Shown in pieces: positions 22,517-40,768 of a stretch of 64,000 bases of DNA; position 1 is the stretch's first letter; every line of letters begins with the position of its first letter. Location: the IMG/VR virus record IMGVR_UViG_3300037424_002120, positions 1 to 64,000 of that record. The stretch is one strand, 5' to 3'. The notes under the pieces were generated by a model, which worked only from the letters and a program-made list of their open reading frames with translations, searched no databases and was not told the origin of the DNA. This DNA is from a virus. A program made the translations under genes and the position numbers.

Positions 22517-24127
22517 TTAAAACTCACTGCGCAGGAATGCACTCATTATCTCAGGAACAGCCGTGTCAAAGCCGCATACTTCAAGTGCTCTTTTATCATC
22601 AGGAGCATTATTAGTGACATGAGTCGCTGTCATCTGCACATTAACGATACGAGCTTCAGCATTGATTTGTCTTCTGTATGCTTCAAGTGCCTGTACAGGC
22701 TGCTGATGGCCTTGCCAAGTTTCACTATCCGACAAAATGACAAATGCATCAACTTCTAGTTTATTCTTTAGAGCATATTCCATTGGCAATGCAAGATTTG
22801 TACCACCACCACCGTATTGCTTCAAGATCTGCACAGCATCGTCAAGTCTTTGTTTTGGTGAAATGGGCAAACCATGTACTGATGTGTCAACACCTATTAT
22901 GTGGTAGTTACTCTCGCTATTTGCCAGAACCAAGGCCATGGCACCTGCTGCCGTATGCACTTCAAGATTTGGAATACCATTGACGGTGGCATTACGCATT
23001 GATCCGCTTGTGTCGATTGCCAGCAAGATGCGCTTACCCGTTGGCTCCACATTGTTAAATGCCAGATAGAATGCGTCATTTAACGCATCTACAATGTCCT
23101 GTACCGGAGTCCAAGTATTGCTGCCACGCACGCTCTTACCACTCTGATAGGTCGTTAATGCAGACAAGATCTTAATCGGATGTAATCGAGCCTTTAAGAT
23201 TGCATCTCGATTGCGTAGCCGCTCTGCAATCTGCCGTGTCATGTCACCCATCGGCAAGATCACACCTTCTCTGGTCATTGTTGCCAGATTGCGAGTCATG
23301 GCCTCCATTGGCATATCTTCAAGCAATGCTTCCCAGACACGCACTGAATGCAGGTATTGAGTCGGAACGGCCTCACGCGGCAATCTATACTCTTTGATCA
23401 GAGCCGCTACTTCCTTGTCATCGGCTGCACACTTGGCTTTCTCATATGCCCAGATAATCCTGAGTGCCTCATCAGAATGCGGTTCGTCTCCTACATTCTC
23501 CCAACCTTTGGTTACCCAGTGATACAGCGCATTGTATGTATCCGTTGTGGCCTTCGGGTGCGCAAGCCTCAATAAGTCTCTCTGGCTGTACCCATCCCTT
23601 TGCTGATATTTTAAAAGCTGATAAGCTAGGTTCTGCTCTTTGCGATCATTAAACCATGAGGCAACGGCACGTCTGTAAGCGCGGCCCCATCCTCTGAACT
23701 GCTTTGTGTAAGCGACAAAATGCAGCAAGTGTGTTCCTGTACGCGCTACTTGTGGAAGGATTGACAATGCATATTGGCGTATTTCTTGATCATCGGCGGC
23801 TGCACAACGAGCTAGAGCAAAAAGAGCAGGATCGTTTGAGGGTGCCCTGCCAGCTTTTGATATCTCAGCAATGGTGTTGACCACAGCCTTCCCCTGGCCC
23901 TCCTTCAACATGCGCTCTACTACATCTAAATTCTCTTTAACAAGCTTTCTCTCACCAACATAGTATGTTCCAGATTGTGCGCCTAATGTAACAAATCTAT
24001 GCAATCGCGTAATATCATCTACTGCGTAGCTGTACCCGCCTGCATTATTTAGAATCTGAGTAGAGCCAGGAATAGGCTCTGTTTGTGGTGTCGACTGCGA
24101 TCTTTTGCCAAAACCGAGATAATGCAT
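22517..24127 (-). CDS. rsr: Ro60/Rsr TROVE-vWA RNA-binding protein
   Basis: NNAGGY, RLHRFVTLG...TYY, KYQQRDGYSQRDLLRLAHP, MTRNL, LHP; vWA MIDAS DTSGSM; SDSETW; GFD. Confidence 0.95.
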   Translation of the reverse strand: MHYLGFGKRSQSTPQTEPIPGSTQILNNAGGYSYAVDDITRLHRFVTLGAQSGTYYVGERKLVKENLDVVERMLKEGQGKAVVNTIAEISKAGRAPSNDPALFALARCAAADDQEIRQYALSILPQVARTGTHLLHFVAYTKQFRGWGRAYRRAVASWFNDRKEQNLAYQLLKYQQRDGYSQRDLLRLAHPKATTDTYNALYHWVTKGWENVGDEPHSDEALRIIWAYEKAKCAADDKEVAALIKEYRLPREAVPTQYLHSVRVWEALLEDMPMEAMTRNLATMTREGVILPMGDMTRQIAERLRNRDAILKARLHPIKILSALTTYQSGKSVRGSNTWTPVQDIVDALNDAFYLAFNNVEPTGKRILLAIDTSGSMRNATVNGIPNLEVHTAAGAMALVLANSESNYHIIGVDTSVHGLPISPKQRLDDAVQILKQYGGGGTNLALPMEYALKNKLEVDAFVILSDSETWQGHQQPVQALEAYRRQINAEARIVNVQMTATHVTNNAPDDKRALEVCGFDTAVPEIMSAFLRSEF

Positions 24128-30220: not shown

Positions 30221-31507
30221 CTAGAAGGGGATGAGCTTCTGAGTCACTTCAACGGGGTGGCCTGCTCCCGAGGGAACCTGCTCCAAGAGCAGTGGTTGAT
30301 CCGGTGACTGGCTCAGACAACAAGCACCCGAAGATGCCAGGGGCGTGTCTGCCCTACTACTACGCCGGGACAAGCCAGGACGTAGATACGTGACGGAACG
30401 AGGAAACGACACATGCTCATCAAAAGCGAGCTGATGCATATTGACACTGCCAACAATATCGCGGTGTCCTGTGAAGCCACAAGCCTTACATGCCCAATTT
30501 CTTCCCTTGGGTTTGTGTTTGTGCCCACAGACCGGACACTGGCTGCTTGTTCCTCGTTCGGAGCCAGTGAAGCTCTTGATGTGGGCCTGTTTGGATTTGT
30601 GAGTCAGGTAGTCGATATCCTTACCGTATTCCCACAAGGCCATGCGCTGATTATGGTGCCTCCCACAATTGCGGTTGCGGACACCATGGGGATTGCCGAT
30701 GAAGAGACTGCCAACTTTCTGTTCTTGGCAGAAGGTGATGACGGATCTGGTGGCTTTGTGTCGCAGATCACGAATGCGTCGCTCTGCTCTTGCCTTGATC
30801 TTGTTCTTGGCTCTTTGGATTTTCTTCCACCGTCTGGAGTACTTCGTGCATCTGGATTGCTTCTTCGCAATTTTGCCCAGTTGCTTGGTTCTCTGCCTTT
30901 TGAGAGATCGAATGCCACGACCTGTCACGATCATGGCTTGTCCTGTGTTTGTCGAGACGGCGGCAAGATGGATCTCTCCAAGGTCTACGGTTGCCTGAAC
31001 CGTTCCTGGTGCTTCCTTCTCTTGAGGTGTTTCAACACAGACATGCAGCTCAAATCCAGTGTTCCAGACAAGGCTACAAGCACCACTGTTCTCAGGGAGT
31101 TCGAGAGGCAGAACAATGGATTTGTTTCCTCTCCCCATTGGCAGAACAATCTTGTTGCCCTTTTTGCAGATAGCTTGTGCAGGCCAATGCACAGGATAGA
31201 AGCGCTTTTCCCTCCAAGGATACTTCATCTGCATTTGAGGATGGGTTTGACGAAGTTGACGTGTGGTATCGATATTCGCAAGAAAAGCATGCACCACCAT
31301 CTGCACAGACTGACTATGCAGTGCAAATTGTCCTTTGGTGGCTTTTTGCAAATCGCTTCGCCCAGGCCATGTGGCGTGTTCCATTCTGGCTTGCTTATGT
31401 GCCTCACAACACAGGTTCCACACTTTTGCGGATTCCATCTGAGCGGCTTTCAGACAAGCAAACAATTTTGGGGTGGGTTGCAATCGATACACACGGACTG
31501 TATTCAT
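30221..31507 (-). CDS. tnpB: TnpB (RuvC-II rearranged type)
   Basis: TVDLG; FIGN in place of the usual RuvC-II Glu, with a Glu in SERGTS; CPVC/CKAC; HRD; likely start MNTVRVYRL. Confidence 0.9.
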   Translation of the reverse strand: MNTVRVYRLQPTPKLFACLKAAQMESAKVWNLCCEAHKQARMEHATWPGRSDLQKATKGQFALHSQSVQMVVHAFLANIDTTRQLRQTHPQMQMKYPWREKRFYPVHWPAQAICKKGNKIVLPMGRGNKSIVLPLELPENSGACSLVWNTGFELHVCVETPQEKEAPGTVQATVDLGEIHLAAVSTNTGQAMIVTGRGIRSLKRQRTKQLGKIAKKQSRCTKYSRRWKKIQRAKNKIKARAERRIRDLRHKATRSVITFCQEQKVGSLFIGNPHGVRNRNCGRHHNQRMALWEYGKDIDYLTHKSKQAHIKSFTGSERGTSSQCPVCGHKHKPKGRNWACKACGFTGHRDIVGSVNMHQLAFDEHVSFPRSVTYLRPGLSRRSSRADTPLASSGACCLSQSPDQPLLLEQVPSGAGHPVEVTQKLIPF

Positions 31508-31521
31508 GGTAGTATTCTCGC

Positions 31522-31935
31522 ATGAATACAGATAGATTACAAGTGGGTAAAACCAGATGGTGCCATTACATGATCGGGTACCACTTGGTTTGGATACCCA
31601 AGTACAGGAGAAAAATCTTTGTGGGAGGAGTTGAAGCGGAAACAAAAAAGCTGATTGCAGCATGTTGTGAACAGCATGATGTGACACTTCTTGCGCTCGA
31701 AACGGATGTGGATCATGTCCATGTGTTTGTGAGTGCTCCTCCTCGCTTGAGCCCTTCAACGATTGCGGGACTGCTCAAAGGGTACACATCACGGTATCTG
31801 CGAGAGAAGTTCCCACATCTCAAGAAATTGTGTGGGAAAGAGCATTTGTGGTCAAGCAGCTATTATGTTGGCACGGCTGGGAGCGTTTCGGCGGAGGTCA
31901 TTCGCCGCTACATTTCTGAGTGCCAGGGAAAGTAG
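31522..31935 (+). CDS. tnpA: Y1 HUH transposase TnpA
   Basis: YHLVWIPKYRR, DHVH (HUH), LKGYTSR, LWSSSYY, RYI. Confidence 0.97.
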   Translation: MNTDRLQVGKTRWCHYMIGYHLVWIPKYRRKIFVGGVEAETKKLIAACCEQHDVTLLALETDVDHVHVFVSAPPRLSPSTIAGLLKGYTSRYLREKFPHLKKLCGKEHLWSSSYYVGTAGSVSAEVIRRYISECQGK

Positions 31936-33415: not shown

Positions 33416-33631
33416 CTAAATGCGGCTATCTAGGAACTCTTCAAGCTCTTTAAGAGAGCGAAAACCTTGTGACCTGCTCTCCAACACAGCATTATCGTCT
33501 GGAGAGACGAATGGCGCTATCCAGTATCGTGCTTCTTGCGGGTACTGGTGCCCAACATGGATATACTTCTGGGAACTATTTAGCCAGTTCCAGCCTGCAT
33601 TCTTCAATTTCGCGTTAATTTTGTCCTTCAC
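33416..33631 (-). CDS. Small hypothetical protein, last gene of the putative acr operon
   Basis: GTG start coupled to the upstream stop. Confidence 0.6.
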   Translation of the reverse strand: MKDKINAKLKNAGWNWLNSSQKYIHVGHQYPQEARYWIAPFVSPDDNAVLESRSQGFRSLKELEEFLDSRI

Positions 33632-34143
33632 TATGCCTTTTCTCCTCTATAGAGCACCAGATAAGCAGCTCTTAGCTTTTGCTGCATGCCAAGTATTTTT
33701 GTCACTGCATGGTCATCGGCCTGGGAGCCTCCGATTTGCTGATAGAAGAGACTTACATACTCCTGAGCTATCCCTATCCTACATCCGGTCATTTCGCTCA
33801 TCTCGCCAGCACTAGATGCTTGAGCAAAATCTAGATCATTGCTAGATGCTTCTAGAATACTAAAAAGAAGATTAAATGGCTCTTTAATGGCATAATCGCT
33901 AGGGACATCTCTACGATGAATACTAATGCGATGCTTAGCAGCAAATTGAGCCATCTCTTTGATCATGCCAATGTTGCCTTTGACACGAGATTGCCCAAGA
34001 TGTGCAGCATACCACGATTTGAATTGCTCAGATTGATCATCGAGCATTCCCGCTTCAGCAGAGAGTAAGCCAGCATTAATTGCTGAATAAATCGTTGAGG
34101 AGGTAATACCGTACTTACGGCTTACCTCATGCACTGAACGCAT
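33631..34143 (-). CDS. HTH fused to a Cas11d (Cas10d C-terminus)-like helical domain; candidate anti-CRISPR
   Basis: N-terminal HTH (VHEVSRKYGITSSTIYSAI); C-terminal S.YAI..P..LLF...EYV.LFY...KLRAAYL.LYR resembles the type I-D small subunit by eye. Confidence 0.5.
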   Translation of the reverse strand: MRSVHEVSRKYGITSSTIYSAINAGLLSAEAGMLDDQSEQFKSWYAAHLGQSRVKGNIGMIKEMAQFAAKHRISIHRRDVPSDYAIKEPFNLLFSILEASSNDLDFAQASSAGEMSEMTGCRIGIAQEYVSLFYQQIGGSQADDHAVTKILGMQQKLRAAYLVLYRGEKA

Positions 34144-34146
34144 TGC

Positions 34147-34701
34147 CTACCTCACTACCAATTCAAATGCAGACGCGCCTAAAATGCTAAAATTCATGAT
34201 GATGACTTCATCCATCCCAACGAAATAACCATCATATCCTTGAGATTGAAGATAAAGGCCGATGATAGCCCATCCCCAATCTGCAAGAAGATCGTCTTGA
34301 TTGCAGGTTTTCTGAAGCTTCTCAGAAGGCGCAAGACCTTCATCCGATAGCAACAGATATCCCTGTTCTAATCCCCATTGCCGAGCTGCTTGACTAGCTT
34401 CATCGGCCTGTTGATGCGTTGCCAGTTTTACCCCTGGCAACGATACTTTGACGACTGCAAGATGAAGCTCACTACCCCATCCATAAATTTTTTGCCCCCA
34501 ATCACGTGCATCCCTTTCGCTCCACGTGCAGCTAAAGCCTGAACCACCTTGACACCCGCCTTGGGTTCCAATCTGGTTTTGATCAAAACCAGATTGAAGG
34601 AGAGACTGAATATTCTCTTTGAGAGAGACATGATAGAATATATCTCCATCACGATACTCATTGATGTATTCCATATATTCTGCATATGGTACTCTTCGCA
34701 T
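34147..34701 (-). CDS. ADP-ribosyltransferase-fold protein
   Basis: FYH..., G.GFSCT, GYDGY...DEVII pattern of PARP/ART-like domains. Confidence 0.6.
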   Translation of the reverse strand: MRRVPYAEYMEYINEYRDGDIFYHVSLKENIQSLLQSGFDQNQIGTQGGCQGGSGFSCTWSERDARDWGQKIYGWGSELHLAVVKVSLPGVKLATHQQADEASQAARQWGLEQGYLLLSDEGLAPSEKLQKTCNQDDLLADWGWAIIGLYLQSQGYDGYFVGMDEVIIMNFSILGASAFELVVR

Positions 34702-34723: not shown

Positions 34724-34778
34724 AATCGTGTACGATTACTATGATAGTAGTATAAATCAATCGTATACGATTTGTCAA
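34724..34778 (-). promoter_or_regulatory. Promoter with two palindromic operators
   Basis: TTGACA-18-TATACT; AATCGTATACGATT at 34759-34772 in the spacer and AATCGTGTACGATT at 34724-34737. Confidence 0.8.
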
Positions 34779-35114: not shown

Positions 35115-35996
35115 CTAGTGAGCTTCTAACCACACAACAACATTATCAAACTCCTCAATTAGTCTTGCAACATTATACATGAAGTCGCTTCCTTGCGTAT
35201 TTGCATCCATAATATCGCTTATTCTACTTCTGAATGCATTTACTAACTCCCGATGAAACCACAGTGTGTTGGTTTTTTGCTCACTGACATCCCTGCCAGC
35301 CTTCTTGAAGATATTGTAGGCCTCATCGCCTTGCTCCTCTACAGAAGGCACAAGGTCATCCCGTGCACTTTGCAGCTTGTCGGCCACGGAGATCAGCAGA
35401 GCGCCGACAGAGACCTCACTGAGATGATTGAGATAGGCACGCTTCCGATCGAGCCAAGGTGCCTTCTCTTCGCCCCCTGGGCCTATCTCAGTGCATTCCT
35501 TCACGAGATCGAGGACTTCCTGGCCATAATCTCCGCATCCTTCTAAGATACGCCTCTCAGGGTCTCTTTGCGGCTGGTCCTCAAGAGCATCATGCAGCGC
35601 GGATGCTGTAATCATCGCCACAGATCCTCTTGCCATCTGGACCATGAGAGCAACCTTAGAGAGATGCTCTTCGAAGTAGGACTTCCCTGTCCTCTTGCGT
35701 ATCTGTCCCCTGTGCAGTTCTTCTGCAAGATCCATACCCATACTGGGAGGAAGATCCTTCCCAATCACCCAAATTCCTTTTTTATGATCAAAATCTATAC
35801 CCTTATCTACATGCCTATCTGCCCACTTCCTTGCAATATCTTCTCGTATTCTTTCATCATCGGAAGAAATTCTAGAAGACCAATTCTTATTCATATAAAC
35901 GAGCACATCTTGCTCGTTTAGCACTTGAGGAAAGGCCGCATTCATTTCCCGACTTATCGCTTGATACCTAGCTTCAAATTCTTTGCGTCCCATCAT
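35115..35996 (-). CDS. HD-domain hydrolase, RelA/SpoT hydrolase (SAH/Mesh1)-like, with an N-terminal extension
   Basis: HRGQIRK..G.SY..H..KVA, ALHDALED, ADKLQSARD. Confidence 0.85.
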   Translation of the reverse strand: MMGRKEFEARYQAISREMNAAFPQVLNEQDVLVYMNKNWSSRISSDDERIREDIARKWADRHVDKGIDFDHKKGIWVIGKDLPPSMGMDLAEELHRGQIRKRTGKSYFEEHLSKVALMVQMARGSVAMITASALHDALEDQPQRDPERRILEGCGDYGQEVLDLVKECTEIGPGGEEKAPWLDRKRAYLNHLSEVSVGALLISVADKLQSARDDLVPSVEEQGDEAYNIFKKAGRDVSEQKTNTLWFHRELVNAFRSRISDIMDANTQGSDFMYNVARLIEEFDNVVVWLEAH

Positions 35997-36260
35997 CAAA
36001 AATCCTTTCTGAGTACCATTCTGGGTGGTAATACTTGCCGTCCATTTCACGTGTATAAGGCCACACGTGGACCTCTCCACAGGGGGATACTTCTACATGT
36101 ACATTGTCCAGCTCGCAAACGCAATCCTCGCCAATGGATGGACTGCATTTGCAATCTGATATTATAACTCCGTCATGCAAAACTTCTTTCAAAACTTCTT
36201 TAGTATGGTTGTTCATGTTTTCCTCGTTGGTGATGTTCCATTTTTCCGATGGAACATCAC

Positions 36261-36942: not shown

Positions 36943-37494
36943 CTACTGCACTCTCCACAGGCTAAACTTAATTGCTGCATTCTCTACCGTCTCGGCGCTG
37001 TGGACCTCACCCTCTGCAAGGCGAGGTAATTGCGCCTGAATGACAATCAGTTGATCACCGCTTTGGAGAGACACTTTCGGTGCTCTCTCTGGAATTGGAA
37101 GATCGATCCAGAATTTACGCTTGATGGCATCAATTGTTGATGCGTGTGATGGATTAAGAGCAGAAACTACATTAGACCCTTGCAGGGTTGTTCTTACTCT
37201 ATCATGATTGATAGAGGTTTTTACCATCGACGCCTCATCGGGAAACATTGTGTCTGATATTGCTAATGAAATGAATGTTGTCATTGGATTGACCTTTCTC
37301 TTTTGTCTATTTTGCTGGTACCGTGCGTACCAAGCAATGAAATCTGATTGATCAACTGCGTACATTCTGCCCCATGGGGACTTGTGAGCTTTCAGCCCCC
37401 ATGGCTTGCCTCTAAAGCCATCGCGTATCGCGTTATTGAGTACGTTGTGTGATATACCGTACTCAATAACATAAGCGGCTACAGGCCGCTCCAT
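36943..37494 (-). CDS. acrIII-1: HTH fused to an AcrIII-1 (DUF1874/STIV B116-like) ring nuclease
   Basis: From M71: ISLAISDTM...SHAST...SLQSGDQLIVIQ...RLAEGEV...IKF with the catalytic His retained; internal SD GAAAGG before the ATG at 37284. Confidence 0.8.
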   Translation of the reverse strand: MERPVAAYVIEYGISHNVLNNAIRDGFRGKPWGLKAHKSPWGRMYAVDQSDFIAWYARYQQNRQKRKVNPMTTFISLAISDTMFPDEASMVKTSINHDRVRTTLQGSNVVSALNPSHASTIDAIKRKFWIDLPIPERAPKVSLQSGDQLIVIQAQLPRLAEGEVHSAETVENAAIKFSLWRVQ

Positions 37495-38060: not shown

Positions 38061-38100
38061 AAAAAAAAAAAGAGAGGTAGCCATCAACTACCTCTCTTTT
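38061..38100. terminator. Bidirectional intrinsic terminator
   Basis: A-tract, AGAGAGGTAG/CTACCTCTCT stem, T-tract. Confidence 0.8.
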
Positions 38101-39224: not shown

Positions 39225-39512
39225 CTACCTTTCCTGGTCATCTAGATCAAGAGCGTCAATTGCCGCATCAACTCTTCTGACTTTGAGTGGGGCCTTTGAT
39301 GGCTCTTTCTCAATCTTCTTTATTGACTGTGGCTCATAATGGTGGACAGGAAGCGCTTGGCTAGAGGACTCTAGCCAAGCGATCACGATGTAACGGATAA
39401 CTTCTCCCCGTGTCGTTCCCATCTTAGAGCAGATGGCATCCAGTTTGATGAGGGCGTCTGAACCCTCATCAAACCAAGTGCTTACTCGTACTCTCCCTCG
39501 TTTAAGCGGCAT
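39225..39512 (-). CDS. RHH DNA-binding protein (ParR-like adaptor)
   Basis: RVSTWF...LDAICSKMGTTRGEVIRYIV; overlaps the parM stop. Confidence 0.7.
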   Translation of the reverse strand: MPLKRGRVRVSTWFDEGSDALIKLDAICSKMGTTRGEVIRYIVIAWLESSSQALPVHHYEPQSIKKIEKEPSKAPLKVRRVDAAIDALDLDDQER

Positions 39513-40587
39513 AAGTCACCTCCCATATAGTAGCCTTTCTACGTTGGAGAGAGGCGGCTATATCCGCATATCCAAGGGCATTAGCAATCTCTGGTCTGCT
39601 TACAACCTCCACTTTGTTGGTGTCAATGATCTTTCGAACAATCTCCTCAAAGTAGTAAGCACCACCCCCTGCAAGGAAAACACGGTCATACTGGGCGGCT
39701 ACTACTTCCCCGTCACTCGCAAGGTTCTGGCTAATAAAATTCCGAAGCGATCTGCCAGCTCTACGGATAGAGTCGGCTATAGTGCTTTCAATCTCACTCC
39801 CGTCTATACCGTAGGTGGTCGGACACGTGCGACTTTTAACATAAGATCTAAGCAAGCTATGAGATTTACGCTCAAGCCCAACCTTTCTCTTGACTCCAAA
39901 TGCTACCAAGTCATCAACAATCTGCCCGACTCCTAACTCAATCCCTACGCATTTATTGATCAATATTTTTTGTCCGTCTGCAACAATAAGATCAATAGTG
40001 CGCTCCCCGATATCAATAACAACCTGTTCATCATTGCTGTCACCACAGTGGATGAGTATTCCTTGTCCCTCAGTGGCCACATGCCCAACCTTTATAACAG
40101 CCTCTCGTGGCATGCCATTAAAAGTGAACTGATAGCGGTTCTCTAGAGAAGACTTAACTCTTTTTCTGTTCTCATTTGAATAAAGAGTAACAGGAAGAGC
40201 CGTTACGAGCCTTAACTCGAAAGACTGGTCAGGGATTAGAGTTGCTGCAAGCGTCAGTAAAAGGACTACAGAGTGCTCAGACCAATAACGATTTTGATCC
40301 CCTAAAGCAGCAGTTGCCCGACCTTTGATCCCCTCCCTCACAAGTTTACCTAAGTAGTAGTTTGTATCATTAAAGTTGAGAACATATTCATCGTCTTCAA
40401 TTACCTGTGAAAGATGAGGATCGTCCTCTTTACCGCGAGTAAGGAGCTTAACGATATCTCCTTCTGAAATGACAGAAGGGATTGTTTTGATATCCACGTC
40501 ACCATAAGATGTGGCAACTGCAAGCGTTGCATCTCCGCTTCCTGGGTCAAAACCTGCATAATAGACAGGTTTACGAGGACTGTACAT
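39502..40587 (-). CDS. parM: ParM/StbA-family actin-like ATPase
   Basis: GFDPGSG, LVTALP, EG.G, VIDIGERTID, LAGGGA, ANALGY actin-fold motifs; SD AAGGAG. Confidence 0.9.
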   Translation of the reverse strand: MYSPRKPVYYAGFDPGSGDATLAVATSYGDVDIKTIPSVISEGDIVKLLTRGKEDDPHLSQVIEDDEYVLNFNDTNYYLGKLVREGIKGRATAALGDQNRYWSEHSVVLLLTLAATLIPDQSFELRLVTALPVTLYSNENRKRVKSSLENRYQFTFNGMPREAVIKVGHVATEGQGILIHCGDSNDEQVVIDIGERTIDLIVADGQKILINKCVGIELGVGQIVDDLVAFGVKRKVGLERKSHSLLRSYVKSRTCPTTYGIDGSEIESTIADSIRRAGRSLRNFISQNLASDGEVVAAQYDRVFLAGGGAYYFEEIVRKIIDTNKVEVVSRPEIANALGYADIAASLQRRKATIWEVTYAA

Positions 40588-40607
40588 GTATTTTTCTCCT
40601 TTGTTTT

Positions 40608-40768
40608 TAAGTACGCTCTCTGGCGTACTTAGTTTACACTTTTCTTGATTTCTATGATCCAGTGAGTAGTTTCTACTCACTTTGTGCGCTCTATAGCGTA
40701 CTTAGACTATACACTACAGGATTAGTGTTGTCAATAGCGCACTTTCTACCTACTTTCTACTCACCCTC
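40608..40768. repeat. Degenerate 11-bp repeats around the parM promoter (parC-like centromere)
   Basis: TAGCGCACTTT/CTACCTACTTT/CTACTCACCCT in tandem, plus TGGCGTACTTA, CTACTCACTTT and TAGCGTACTTA; promoter TTGACA-17-TATAGT (40734-40706). Confidence 0.6.

Follow-up and report, generated by a model that had tools for sequence, protein, structure and literature searches.

A phage helix-turn-helix protein with a Cas11d-like domain, a candidate anti-CRISPR decoy for type I-D Cascade

Why would a virus carry, away from any CRISPR-Cas operon, a single gene whose product resembles the small subunit of a type I-D effector complex? The question is raised by one gene in the window analyzed here, the first 64 kb (64,000 nucleotides [nt]) of the 95,482-bp IMG/VR virus record IMGVR_UViG_3300037424_002120, which is ~87% complete. 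An ATG-initiated open reading frame (ORF) of 170 amino acids (aa) at 33631-34143, minus strand (protein P0001), had been read as a helix-turn-helix (HTH) fused to a mimic of Cas11d and proposed as an anti-CRISPR (Acr) protein. The ORF exists, and every motif quoted in that original prediction is present in its translation. The C-terminal domain of P0001 is almost certainly a descendant of Cas11d, and we lean towards the view that the protein is an anti-CRISPR decoy Cascade subunit, a function to which its homology and genomic context point. The gene and its two domains are as follows.

33631..34143, minus strand: HTH-Cas11d fusion gene (170 aa, P0001), from the ORF, the family alignment and a structural model with pLDDT (predicted local distance difference test) 85.3
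33991..34143, minus strand: MerR/Xis-type winged HTH, residues 1-51, from structure superposition and weak hidden Markov model (HMM) matches
33643..33969, minus strand: Cas11d-like five-helix domain, residues 59-167, without the acidic tail and basic charge of the host protein, from structure, hhalign, HMM and BLASTP

The family to which P0001 belongs is tiny. In ~15 billion proteins searched, it comprises eight sequences, P0001 and seven relatives at 28-76% identity. A word-indexed search of 5.8 billion clusters returned P0001 itself and one truncated relative (74% identical), and an exhaustive phmmer search of 1.84 billion representatives gave five further relatives at 51% and ~32% identity. 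One member comes from a Ktedonobacteraceae metagenome-assembled genome (MAG). This is a real gene under selection, since the relatives align with it from end to end and share invariant residues (M1, A21, D35, G56, P89, A107, V130 and F133). A profile search gained no extra members, a related-locus search of viral contigs using P0003 and P0004 gave no match, and the contig of the one member placed in a genome (G079, locus L055) is 2.2 kb long and offers no informative neighbors. Single-protein searches with P0001 found nothing Cas-related in Pfam, PHROGs, NCBIfam, PADLOC, PDB sequences, phage GenBank records, IMG/VR, the ESM Atlas or BFVD.

The predicted structure was more telling. An AlphaFold2 model built from a 7-sequence alignment, with no templates, reached the mean pLDDT given above (a single-sequence model, at pLDDT 43, was useless), and it bears out the fusion that had been proposed, with a winged HTH of beta-helix-helix-beta-beta topology at residues 1-51 followed by an all-helical domain, a bundle spanning residues ~55-170. 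The HTH superposes on MerR-family regulators, Pukovnik Xis, CvkR and BldC (VIA-align Z ~6, root mean square deviation [rmsd] 1.8-2.4 Å over 45-51 residues). Profile matches at residues 3-31 are weak (MerR, HTH_17, rep_pAB02_ORF2 with an E of 2e-4 and mad1 with an E of 6e-4), the Pfam MerR score being 12.5 bits against a cut-off of 28.2. P0001 does not have the architecture of a MerR-family protein, as only the N-terminal domain matches, and the C-terminal part is a Cas11-type bundle in place of the coiled-coil helix and effector-binding region.

When the model was compared, in an unbiased manner and by a method independent of Foldseek, with 48,161 PDB representatives, the first match was the C-terminus of Synechocystis Cas10d (7sbb_I, residues 793-968; Z 10.5, rmsd 3.3 Å over 116 residues). 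The second was the chain named Cas11d in the PDB (7sba_J), which has the same five-helix fold (Z 10.1, rmsd 3.0 Å over 105 of ~112 residues; model residues 59-170 against chain residues 6-139; PDB 7SBA/7SBB; McBride et al. 2020; Schwartz et al. 2022, PMC9123187). The Cas10d C-terminus of S. islandicus (6thh_C, Z 8.2) ranked fourth, so that the Cas11-type fold of P0001 superposes both on Cas11d and on the end of Cas10d. Further chains of the Cas10/Cas11 family followed (Cmr2 C-terminus, Z 7.2; Csm2, 6.0 and 5.5; Csm1 C-terminus, 5.7; Cmr5, 5.3 and 5.2), and an unrelated chain, CT622, intruded among the matches with a Z of 8.5. In Foldseek, Cas10d chains were the top ones by TM-score (0.43-0.50 versus ≤0.31 for the others), with E-values that were not significant. 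The training of the AlphaFold2 weights ended with structures of 2018. The matched Cas10d/Cas11d entries were released in 2020 and 2022, after that training, and the model is therefore not a memory of these structures. A chance likeness, in a gene unrelated to CRISPR, is a competing explanation, and the middling Z-scores that are common for helical bundles, together with the Foldseek E-values, would suit it. It is the sequences of the bacterial hosts that decide against it.

Searched against 169 Ktedonobacteria genomes, the family profile matched in 23, always with its C-terminal domain only (profile positions ~55-168; E-values from 1e-10 to 5e-18), in ORFs of 150-190 aa. These are 22 published genomes and one unpublished (G124), on which no claim rests. 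In all 22 published genomes, the match lies 164-394 nt from a Cas7d/Csc2 match and in the same orientation. We fetched eight of the loci (L067-L074, from genomes G143, G157, G156, G163, G070, G041, G068 and G085, respectively; e.g., L070:4201-16632), and all eight have the same gene order, i.e., a ~400-aa gene, an 885-aa gene, the stand-alone ORF, a 337-aa gene and a 240-aa gene, with an 880-aa gene next in seven of them and cas6-, cas1- and cas2-sized genes after it wherever the locus extends far enough. NCBIfam names the flanking genes Cas10d/Csc3, Cas7d/Csc2, Cas5d/Csc1, Cas3' (cyano type), Cas6 and Cas1d, which gives the order cas10d, stand-alone gene, cas7d, cas5d, cas3' and then the cas6, cas1 and cas2 candidates. 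The ~400-aa gene that invariably precedes cas10d in the eight loci is uncharacterized.

The Cas10d of these loci (~885 aa) matches canonical Cas10d over columns 11-860 and lacks any Cas11-like part, while the small ORF covers columns 922-1033; stop codons divide the two, the gaps between them being -4 to +69 nt. Because Cas10d lacks the Cas11 part and a small ORF aligning precisely there follows beyond stop codons, the loci are, by alignment and gene order, a split variant of type I-D with a stand-alone cas11d gene of 150-190 aa between cas10d and cas7d. Internal expression of Cas11d is apparently widely conserved across all I-D lineages, according to a 2023 review, and it has been proposed that cas11d was fused onto cas10 in the course of evolution (PMC10212523). 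The split variant may represent the unfused state, ancestral or secondary.

The homology between the phage family and this host gene is strong. Profile-profile alignment with hhalign gave a probability of 99.3% and an E of 9.5e-21 over 110 columns. An HMM made from host sequences only placed P0001 first among 528 phage ORFs (E 6.8e-10, residues 61-168), with the runner-up at 0.049, and BLASTP aligned P0001 with the host gene at 33% identity over 115 residues (E 2e-9), the sole match between the ORFs of the eight host I-D loci and the phage. Overall, phage and stand-alone host proteins are 19-33% identical over ~110 residues, in a nearly gapless alignment. P0001 has significant sequence homology to Cas11d proteins of the stand-alone kind. 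The link to canonical Cas11d runs through this host gene, which matches the canonical form at 94.2% and an E of 1.2e-7 (hhalign). A direct comparison of the phage family with 107 canonical Cas10d proteins of Ktedonobacteria, cut to their C-terminal 160-200 residues, was marginal (score 27.2, P 0.0017, probability 15%), with a collinear alignment in which AIKEP faces SILKP and EYVSLFYQQI faces EFITYFYKQV. Against full-length Cas10d, the best match fell exactly on the Cas11d domain (columns 915-1032 of 1054). None of 200 column shuffles matched the real score against canonical Cas11d. A chance resemblance is hardly credible and effectively refuted by the host sequences, as the hhalign, HMM and BLASTP E-values all concern a gene found invariably between cas10d and cas7d, and no column shuffle reaches the real score even with the canonical protein.

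On these comparisons, the nearest relative of the P0001 domain is the separately encoded Cas11d of the split type I-D systems of Ktedonobacteria and not the Cas11d embedded in cas10d. A maximum-likelihood tree is consistent with one clade each for the phage family, the host genes of the stand-alone kind and canonical Cas11d (support 82/62, 95/85 and 100/100, respectively). The capture must be old and not recent, since the phage sequences do not fall within the host group. Thus, the likeness to Cas11d or the Cas10d C-terminus, which had been proposed by eye, is real by structure and by sequence, with both a fold and a profile match for residues ~60-170. The idea of a stolen type I-D subunit holds as far as descent from Cas11d is concerned; its source has to be refined to the separately encoded protein of the split variant, taken up long ago.

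To what host does this virus belong? The record has siphovirus-type genes (terminase, portal, protease, major head and tape-measure), as well as a primase and a ParB-like protein. A cyanophage origin, which the G+C content and the connection with type I-D had first suggested to us, was rejected on the evidence of an insertion sequence, the family member in the MAG and prophage-like matches, which lead to Ktedonobacteria. The insertion sequence is the following.

30221-31935: IS200/IS605 element inserted in the phage; candidates for TnpB on the minus strand and for TnpA (137 aa) on the plus strand

The phage TnpB (P0009) shares 86-88% identity with copies in a Ktedonobacteraceae MAG and 68-82% with many copies in other Ktedonobacteria, against ≤59% elsewhere. 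DNA of the structural module matches prophage-like regions in three Ktedonobacteria genomes at 65-71% identity. The TnpB identity, the family member in the MAG and these DNA matches together indicate Ktedonobacteria as the host class. Type I-D occurs there. Cas7d/Csc2 was found in 59 of the 169 genomes, and of the five genomes whose TnpB copies are closest to that of the phage, three encode Cas10d; at the level of the class, the cognate CRISPR-Cas subtype is thus present in the host lineage. Cmr2 (type III-B) is also present in candidate host genomes. Three host-phage DNA matches of 33-36 nt were found, none of them in arrays.

Some other features of the phage can be mentioned here. A ParB-like partition protein is encoded at 39502-40680 of the window, minus strand (phrog_691, E 2e-30), and no integrase was noticed in the phage, which is possibly a plasmid-prophage. 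Outside the window, at 70196-70370 of the record, there are at least four GAAAAGCAGTCCAAAAAAAGAC-like repeats with irregular, iteron-like spacing; an array-like match at this place was rejected as CRISPR for that irregularity. At 22517-24127, minus strand, a 536-aa protein matches phrog_850 ("RNA-binding protein") with an E of 5e-74.

What could a Cas11d domain do in such a phage? Not the work of a complete CRISPR system. As had been claimed, the window contains neither a further cas gene nor an array. The Cas10d model TIGR03174 came out blank in the 95-kb record, and Cas11d is the only gene shared with the eight host I-D loci, so a functional phage-borne CRISPR system was rejected. The gene for Cas11d proper lies inside cas10d or beside it in a type I-D operon, whereas no Cas10d is found in the 95-kb record; P0001 is a solitary effector-subunit homologue on a virus, outside any cas operon or array. 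It shares with canonical Cas11d the collinear motifs I-x-K/E-P after helix 1, EYV-x-LFY in helix 4 and AAY-L-V-x-Y-R in helix 5. It differs in residing on a phage with no other cas gene, in its N-terminal HTH, in not being translated from within cas10d and in being ~20 residues shorter between helices 3 and 4.

The comparison with the stand-alone host Cas11d (e.g., L070:8325-8837, our group F5) is more revealing. The host proteins have in common a basic motif, K/R-G-R-S-x-K-R-N-S-L-L-K-P, before an invariant proline, their core is basic (net charge +1 to +9, isoelectric point 8.1-10.2) and they end in an acidic tail of 25-44 residues with a net charge of -6 to -10. The phage proteins have none of these. 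Neutral or acidic residues stand in place of the basic motif, the core is near neutral (-3 to 0), and they stop 3-18 residues past the last helix, with the HTH at the opposite end. Type I-D Cascade has the composition Cas10d1:Cas7d7:Cas5d1:Cas11d2, with a minor filament formed by Cas11d and the Cas10d C-terminus, and Cas11d is thought to stabilize the R-loop via its positive charge (PMC9123187, PMC10212523). A solitary phage copy without the basic surface and the tail looks as a decoy subunit would be expected to look. We propose that the decoy domain, derived from the host Cas11d, would join type I-D Cascade in place of the functional small subunit, and that, without the basic core and the acidic tail, the resulting complex would hold the R-loop and the non-target strand poorly; the HTH may also bring steric bulk into Cascade. 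In the split variant, Cas10d contributes no Cas11 domain and all the minor-filament positions have to be filled from the free pool, and because of this dependence on the free pool, the variant may be especially sensitive to a decoy.

A variation on this theme, compatible with the decoy but improbable in our view, is that a free 111-aa Cas11d mimic is produced from an internal start at Met60, leaving the full-length form as a regulator only. In the alignment, Met60 (position 33966 of the window) falls exactly on the methionine with which the stand-alone host Cas11d begins, and it has AAAGG 10 nt upstream; Cas11d itself is made from within cas10d, and internal translation of Cas11 is widespread (PMC9123187). 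However, the methionine is not conserved (several members have Leu, encoded by CTG in P0004), and AAAGG is a weak Shine-Dalgarno sequence.

The proposed decoy would be expressed from a small transcription unit with its own control elements, all on the same strand except for the symmetrical sites.

34749..34778, minus strand: sigma-70-like promoter TTGACA-18-TATACT of the unit orf184 / HTH-Cas11d / orf71 (11 of 12 consensus positions)
34759..34772, no strand: operator-like perfect palindrome AATCGTATACGATT in the promoter spacer, from a motif search
34724..34737, no strand: second palindrome copy, AATCGTACACGATT, flanked by the -10 box and the orf184 ribosome-binding site
34147..34701, minus strand: orf184, first gene of the unit, with its stop 3 nt before the ATG of the fusion gene
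33416..33631, minus strand: orf71, last gene of the unit, with a start overlapping the stop of the fusion gene and no family match

The 14-bp palindrome, AATCGTAYACGATT, occurs at these two sites only in the 64 kb, where 0.41 matches are expected by chance. The fusion protein is the sole HTH protein detected in the unit, and the combination of an HTH protein and an inverted repeat overlapping the promoter of its own operon is that of anti-CRISPR-associated (Aca) regulators, with a putative operator role for the repeat. Most likely, the MerR/Xis-type HTH binds the two palindromes and would shut the operon off after early expression, in the manner of Aca proteins and AcrIIA1. As to orf184, two independent matches gave weak hints of an H-Y-E ADP-ribosyltransferase (Pfam Tox-ART-HYE1, E 0.18; diphtheria toxin catalytic domain, E 0.91, at a YH motif), and the protein has no homologues in the 169 Ktedonobacteria genomes. 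AcrIF11 is an ADP-ribosyltransferase, and on this thin evidence, orf184 could be an enzymatic anti-defense protein.

The same promoter suits a more ordinary explanation, in which P0001 is a phage transcription regulator whose Cas11d-derived bundle was exapted for dimerization or sensing, with no effect on CRISPR left. MerR-type regulators require a C-terminal dimerization element, the family has evolved independently for long as a separate clade, and the host-specific basic motif and acidic tail are gone. Yet conservation in the family is centered on the Cas11d-like domain, along the helices common to the host protein, the family is restricted to one bacterial class, in which the matching stand-alone Cas11d exists, and a sister fusion nearby bears an anti-type III domain, which suggests that the HTH is a carrier of anti-CRISPR cargo. 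We therefore regard a plain regulator as unlikely, if the most serious of the competitors. Quite improbable is that the Cas11d domain docks on Cascade or Cas10d and the HTH tethers the complex to phage operators or to the promoter of the host cas genes, hijacking the first or repressing the second. P0001 does join a predicted sequence-specific DNA binder to a homologue of a Cascade subunit, and a transcriptional regulator is frequent in type I-D loci (PMC10212523). Within the window, however, the palindrome is found only in the promoter of the phage's own unit, the host cas promoters not having been searched. Hijacking of Cascade or repression of cas genes by such a fusion has no precedent that we know of.

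The sister fusion lies ~2.8 kb upstream of P0001, in an operon with a similar promoter.

36943..37494, minus strand: HTH + DUF1874/AcrIII-1-like fusion, 183 aa
37962..37991, minus strand: second promoter, identical to the first in hexamers and spacing, its spacer bearing another inverted repeat, heading the upstream operon
38068-38100: terminator just upstream of the second promoter

The C-terminus of this protein matches Pfam PF08960 (E 2.8e-5; 24.6 bits against a cut-off of 26) and phrog_5063 (E 2.8e-7), and its predicted structure in the Atlas has a TM of 0.83 to the PF08960 cluster (DUF1874/STIV B116-like). Among the phage proteins, it ranks second in the similarity of its N-terminus to the HTH of P0001 (E 0.011-0.015). 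DUF1874 is the AcrIII-1 ring-nuclease family (bioRxiv 10.1101/778746). The island has the look of a pair of autoregulated operons, both of which join an HTH to a cargo related to CRISPR. Between them, at 35115-36080, minus strand, there is a protein with an HD_4 domain (RelA/SpoT-type HD hydrolase; Pfam E 1.2e-10), which may be a nucleotide-signal hydrolase. A more ambitious version of our proposal, which we put forward tentatively and as rather less than probable in its entirety, is that P0001 would be the first example both of an anti-CRISPR aimed at type I-D in bacteria and of a Cas11-derived inhibitor joined to its own regulator, that it makes up half of a modular island in which a common HTH "header" carries different cargoes, type I-D being countered by a Cas11d decoy and type III by an AcrIII-1 ring nuclease, and that it reveals an undescribed I-D variant with unfused cas11d, the state postulated to precede the fusion.

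It should be noted that several results weigh against P0001 being a Cas11d-derived decoy. With regard to descent, helical bundles may reach Z values of 13-14 by chance, so the structural match alone is not decisive. The likeness to the Cas11d embedded in canonical cas10d is weak (hhalign P 0.0014-0.0017, probability 15-18%), 14 of 200 block-shuffled controls scored at or above the canonical match, and HMMER detected no similarity, an HMM of canonical Cas11d not placing P0001 first among the ORFs of the window. As for function, the cores of canonical Cas11d are near neutral too, and the loss of charge is no proof of a defect. The position of the phage family in the tree, outside the host genes, implies a long independent evolution in which another role could have been acquired. 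The best host candidate by TnpB identity (G001) has a canonical, fused type I-D system and no match to the family, and the ~350 spacers beside the eight split-type loci gave only chance matches of 13-17 nt to the phage.

Homologues of Cas proteins that act as inhibitors do have a precedent, and the one invoked in the original prediction is real. AcrIB3 is homologous to Cas5, and AcrIB4 to the C-terminal 90 residues of Cas8b; the two inhibit type I-B, and with them Cascade no longer engages DNA (bioRxiv 10.1101/2023.06.24.545427). Four of the 12 new Acr families in the same study have HTH domains. Like P0001, the two are solitary homologues of Cascade subunits on mobile elements, proposed to yield a defective Cascade, and AcrIB4 is the counterpart of that C-terminal portion of the large subunit which is equivalent to Cas11. 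The differences are the subtype (I-B for AcrIB4, I-D for P0001), the host phylum, the identity to the Cas parent (38% versus ~30%) and the HTH, with no fusion reported for AcrIB4. AcrIIA1, other HTH-bearing Acrs and acr-aca operons likewise combine an HTH and an anti-CRISPR module with a palindromic operator and a strong early promoter. They differ in the type of HTH, which in P0001 is of the MerR/excisionase kind, and in P0001 both autoregulation and inhibition are putative.

Two more inhibitors invite comparison. AcrID1 (SIRV3 gp02) is, according to the 2023 review, the only known type I-D anti-CRISPR (PMC10212523), and no AcrID2 was found in the searchable literature. AcrID1 has the same target system but is a small acidic dimer from an archaeal virus that binds Cas10d and is not a homologue of a Cas protein. 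AcrIF3 mimics the helical bundle of a large subunit, as P0001 does, with no detectable sequence homology to Cas8f, and binds Cas2/3; the homology of P0001, in contrast, can be demonstrated.

The HTH-Cas11d fusion of P0001 would thus carry the idea of an anti-CRISPR made from a Cas homologue into a further subtype. If this is true, viral inhibitors derived from Cas subunits extend from the type I-B systems of Listeria to another subtype and another phylum, and an inhibitor and its own regulator would have been fused in one polypeptide. An off-switch for type I-D would be useful because the system is under development as a tool for editing the genomes of plants and mammalian cells. On the bacterial side, the presence of the unfused variant in 23 Ktedonobacteria genomes makes the scenario of a cas11d fused onto cas10 testable.

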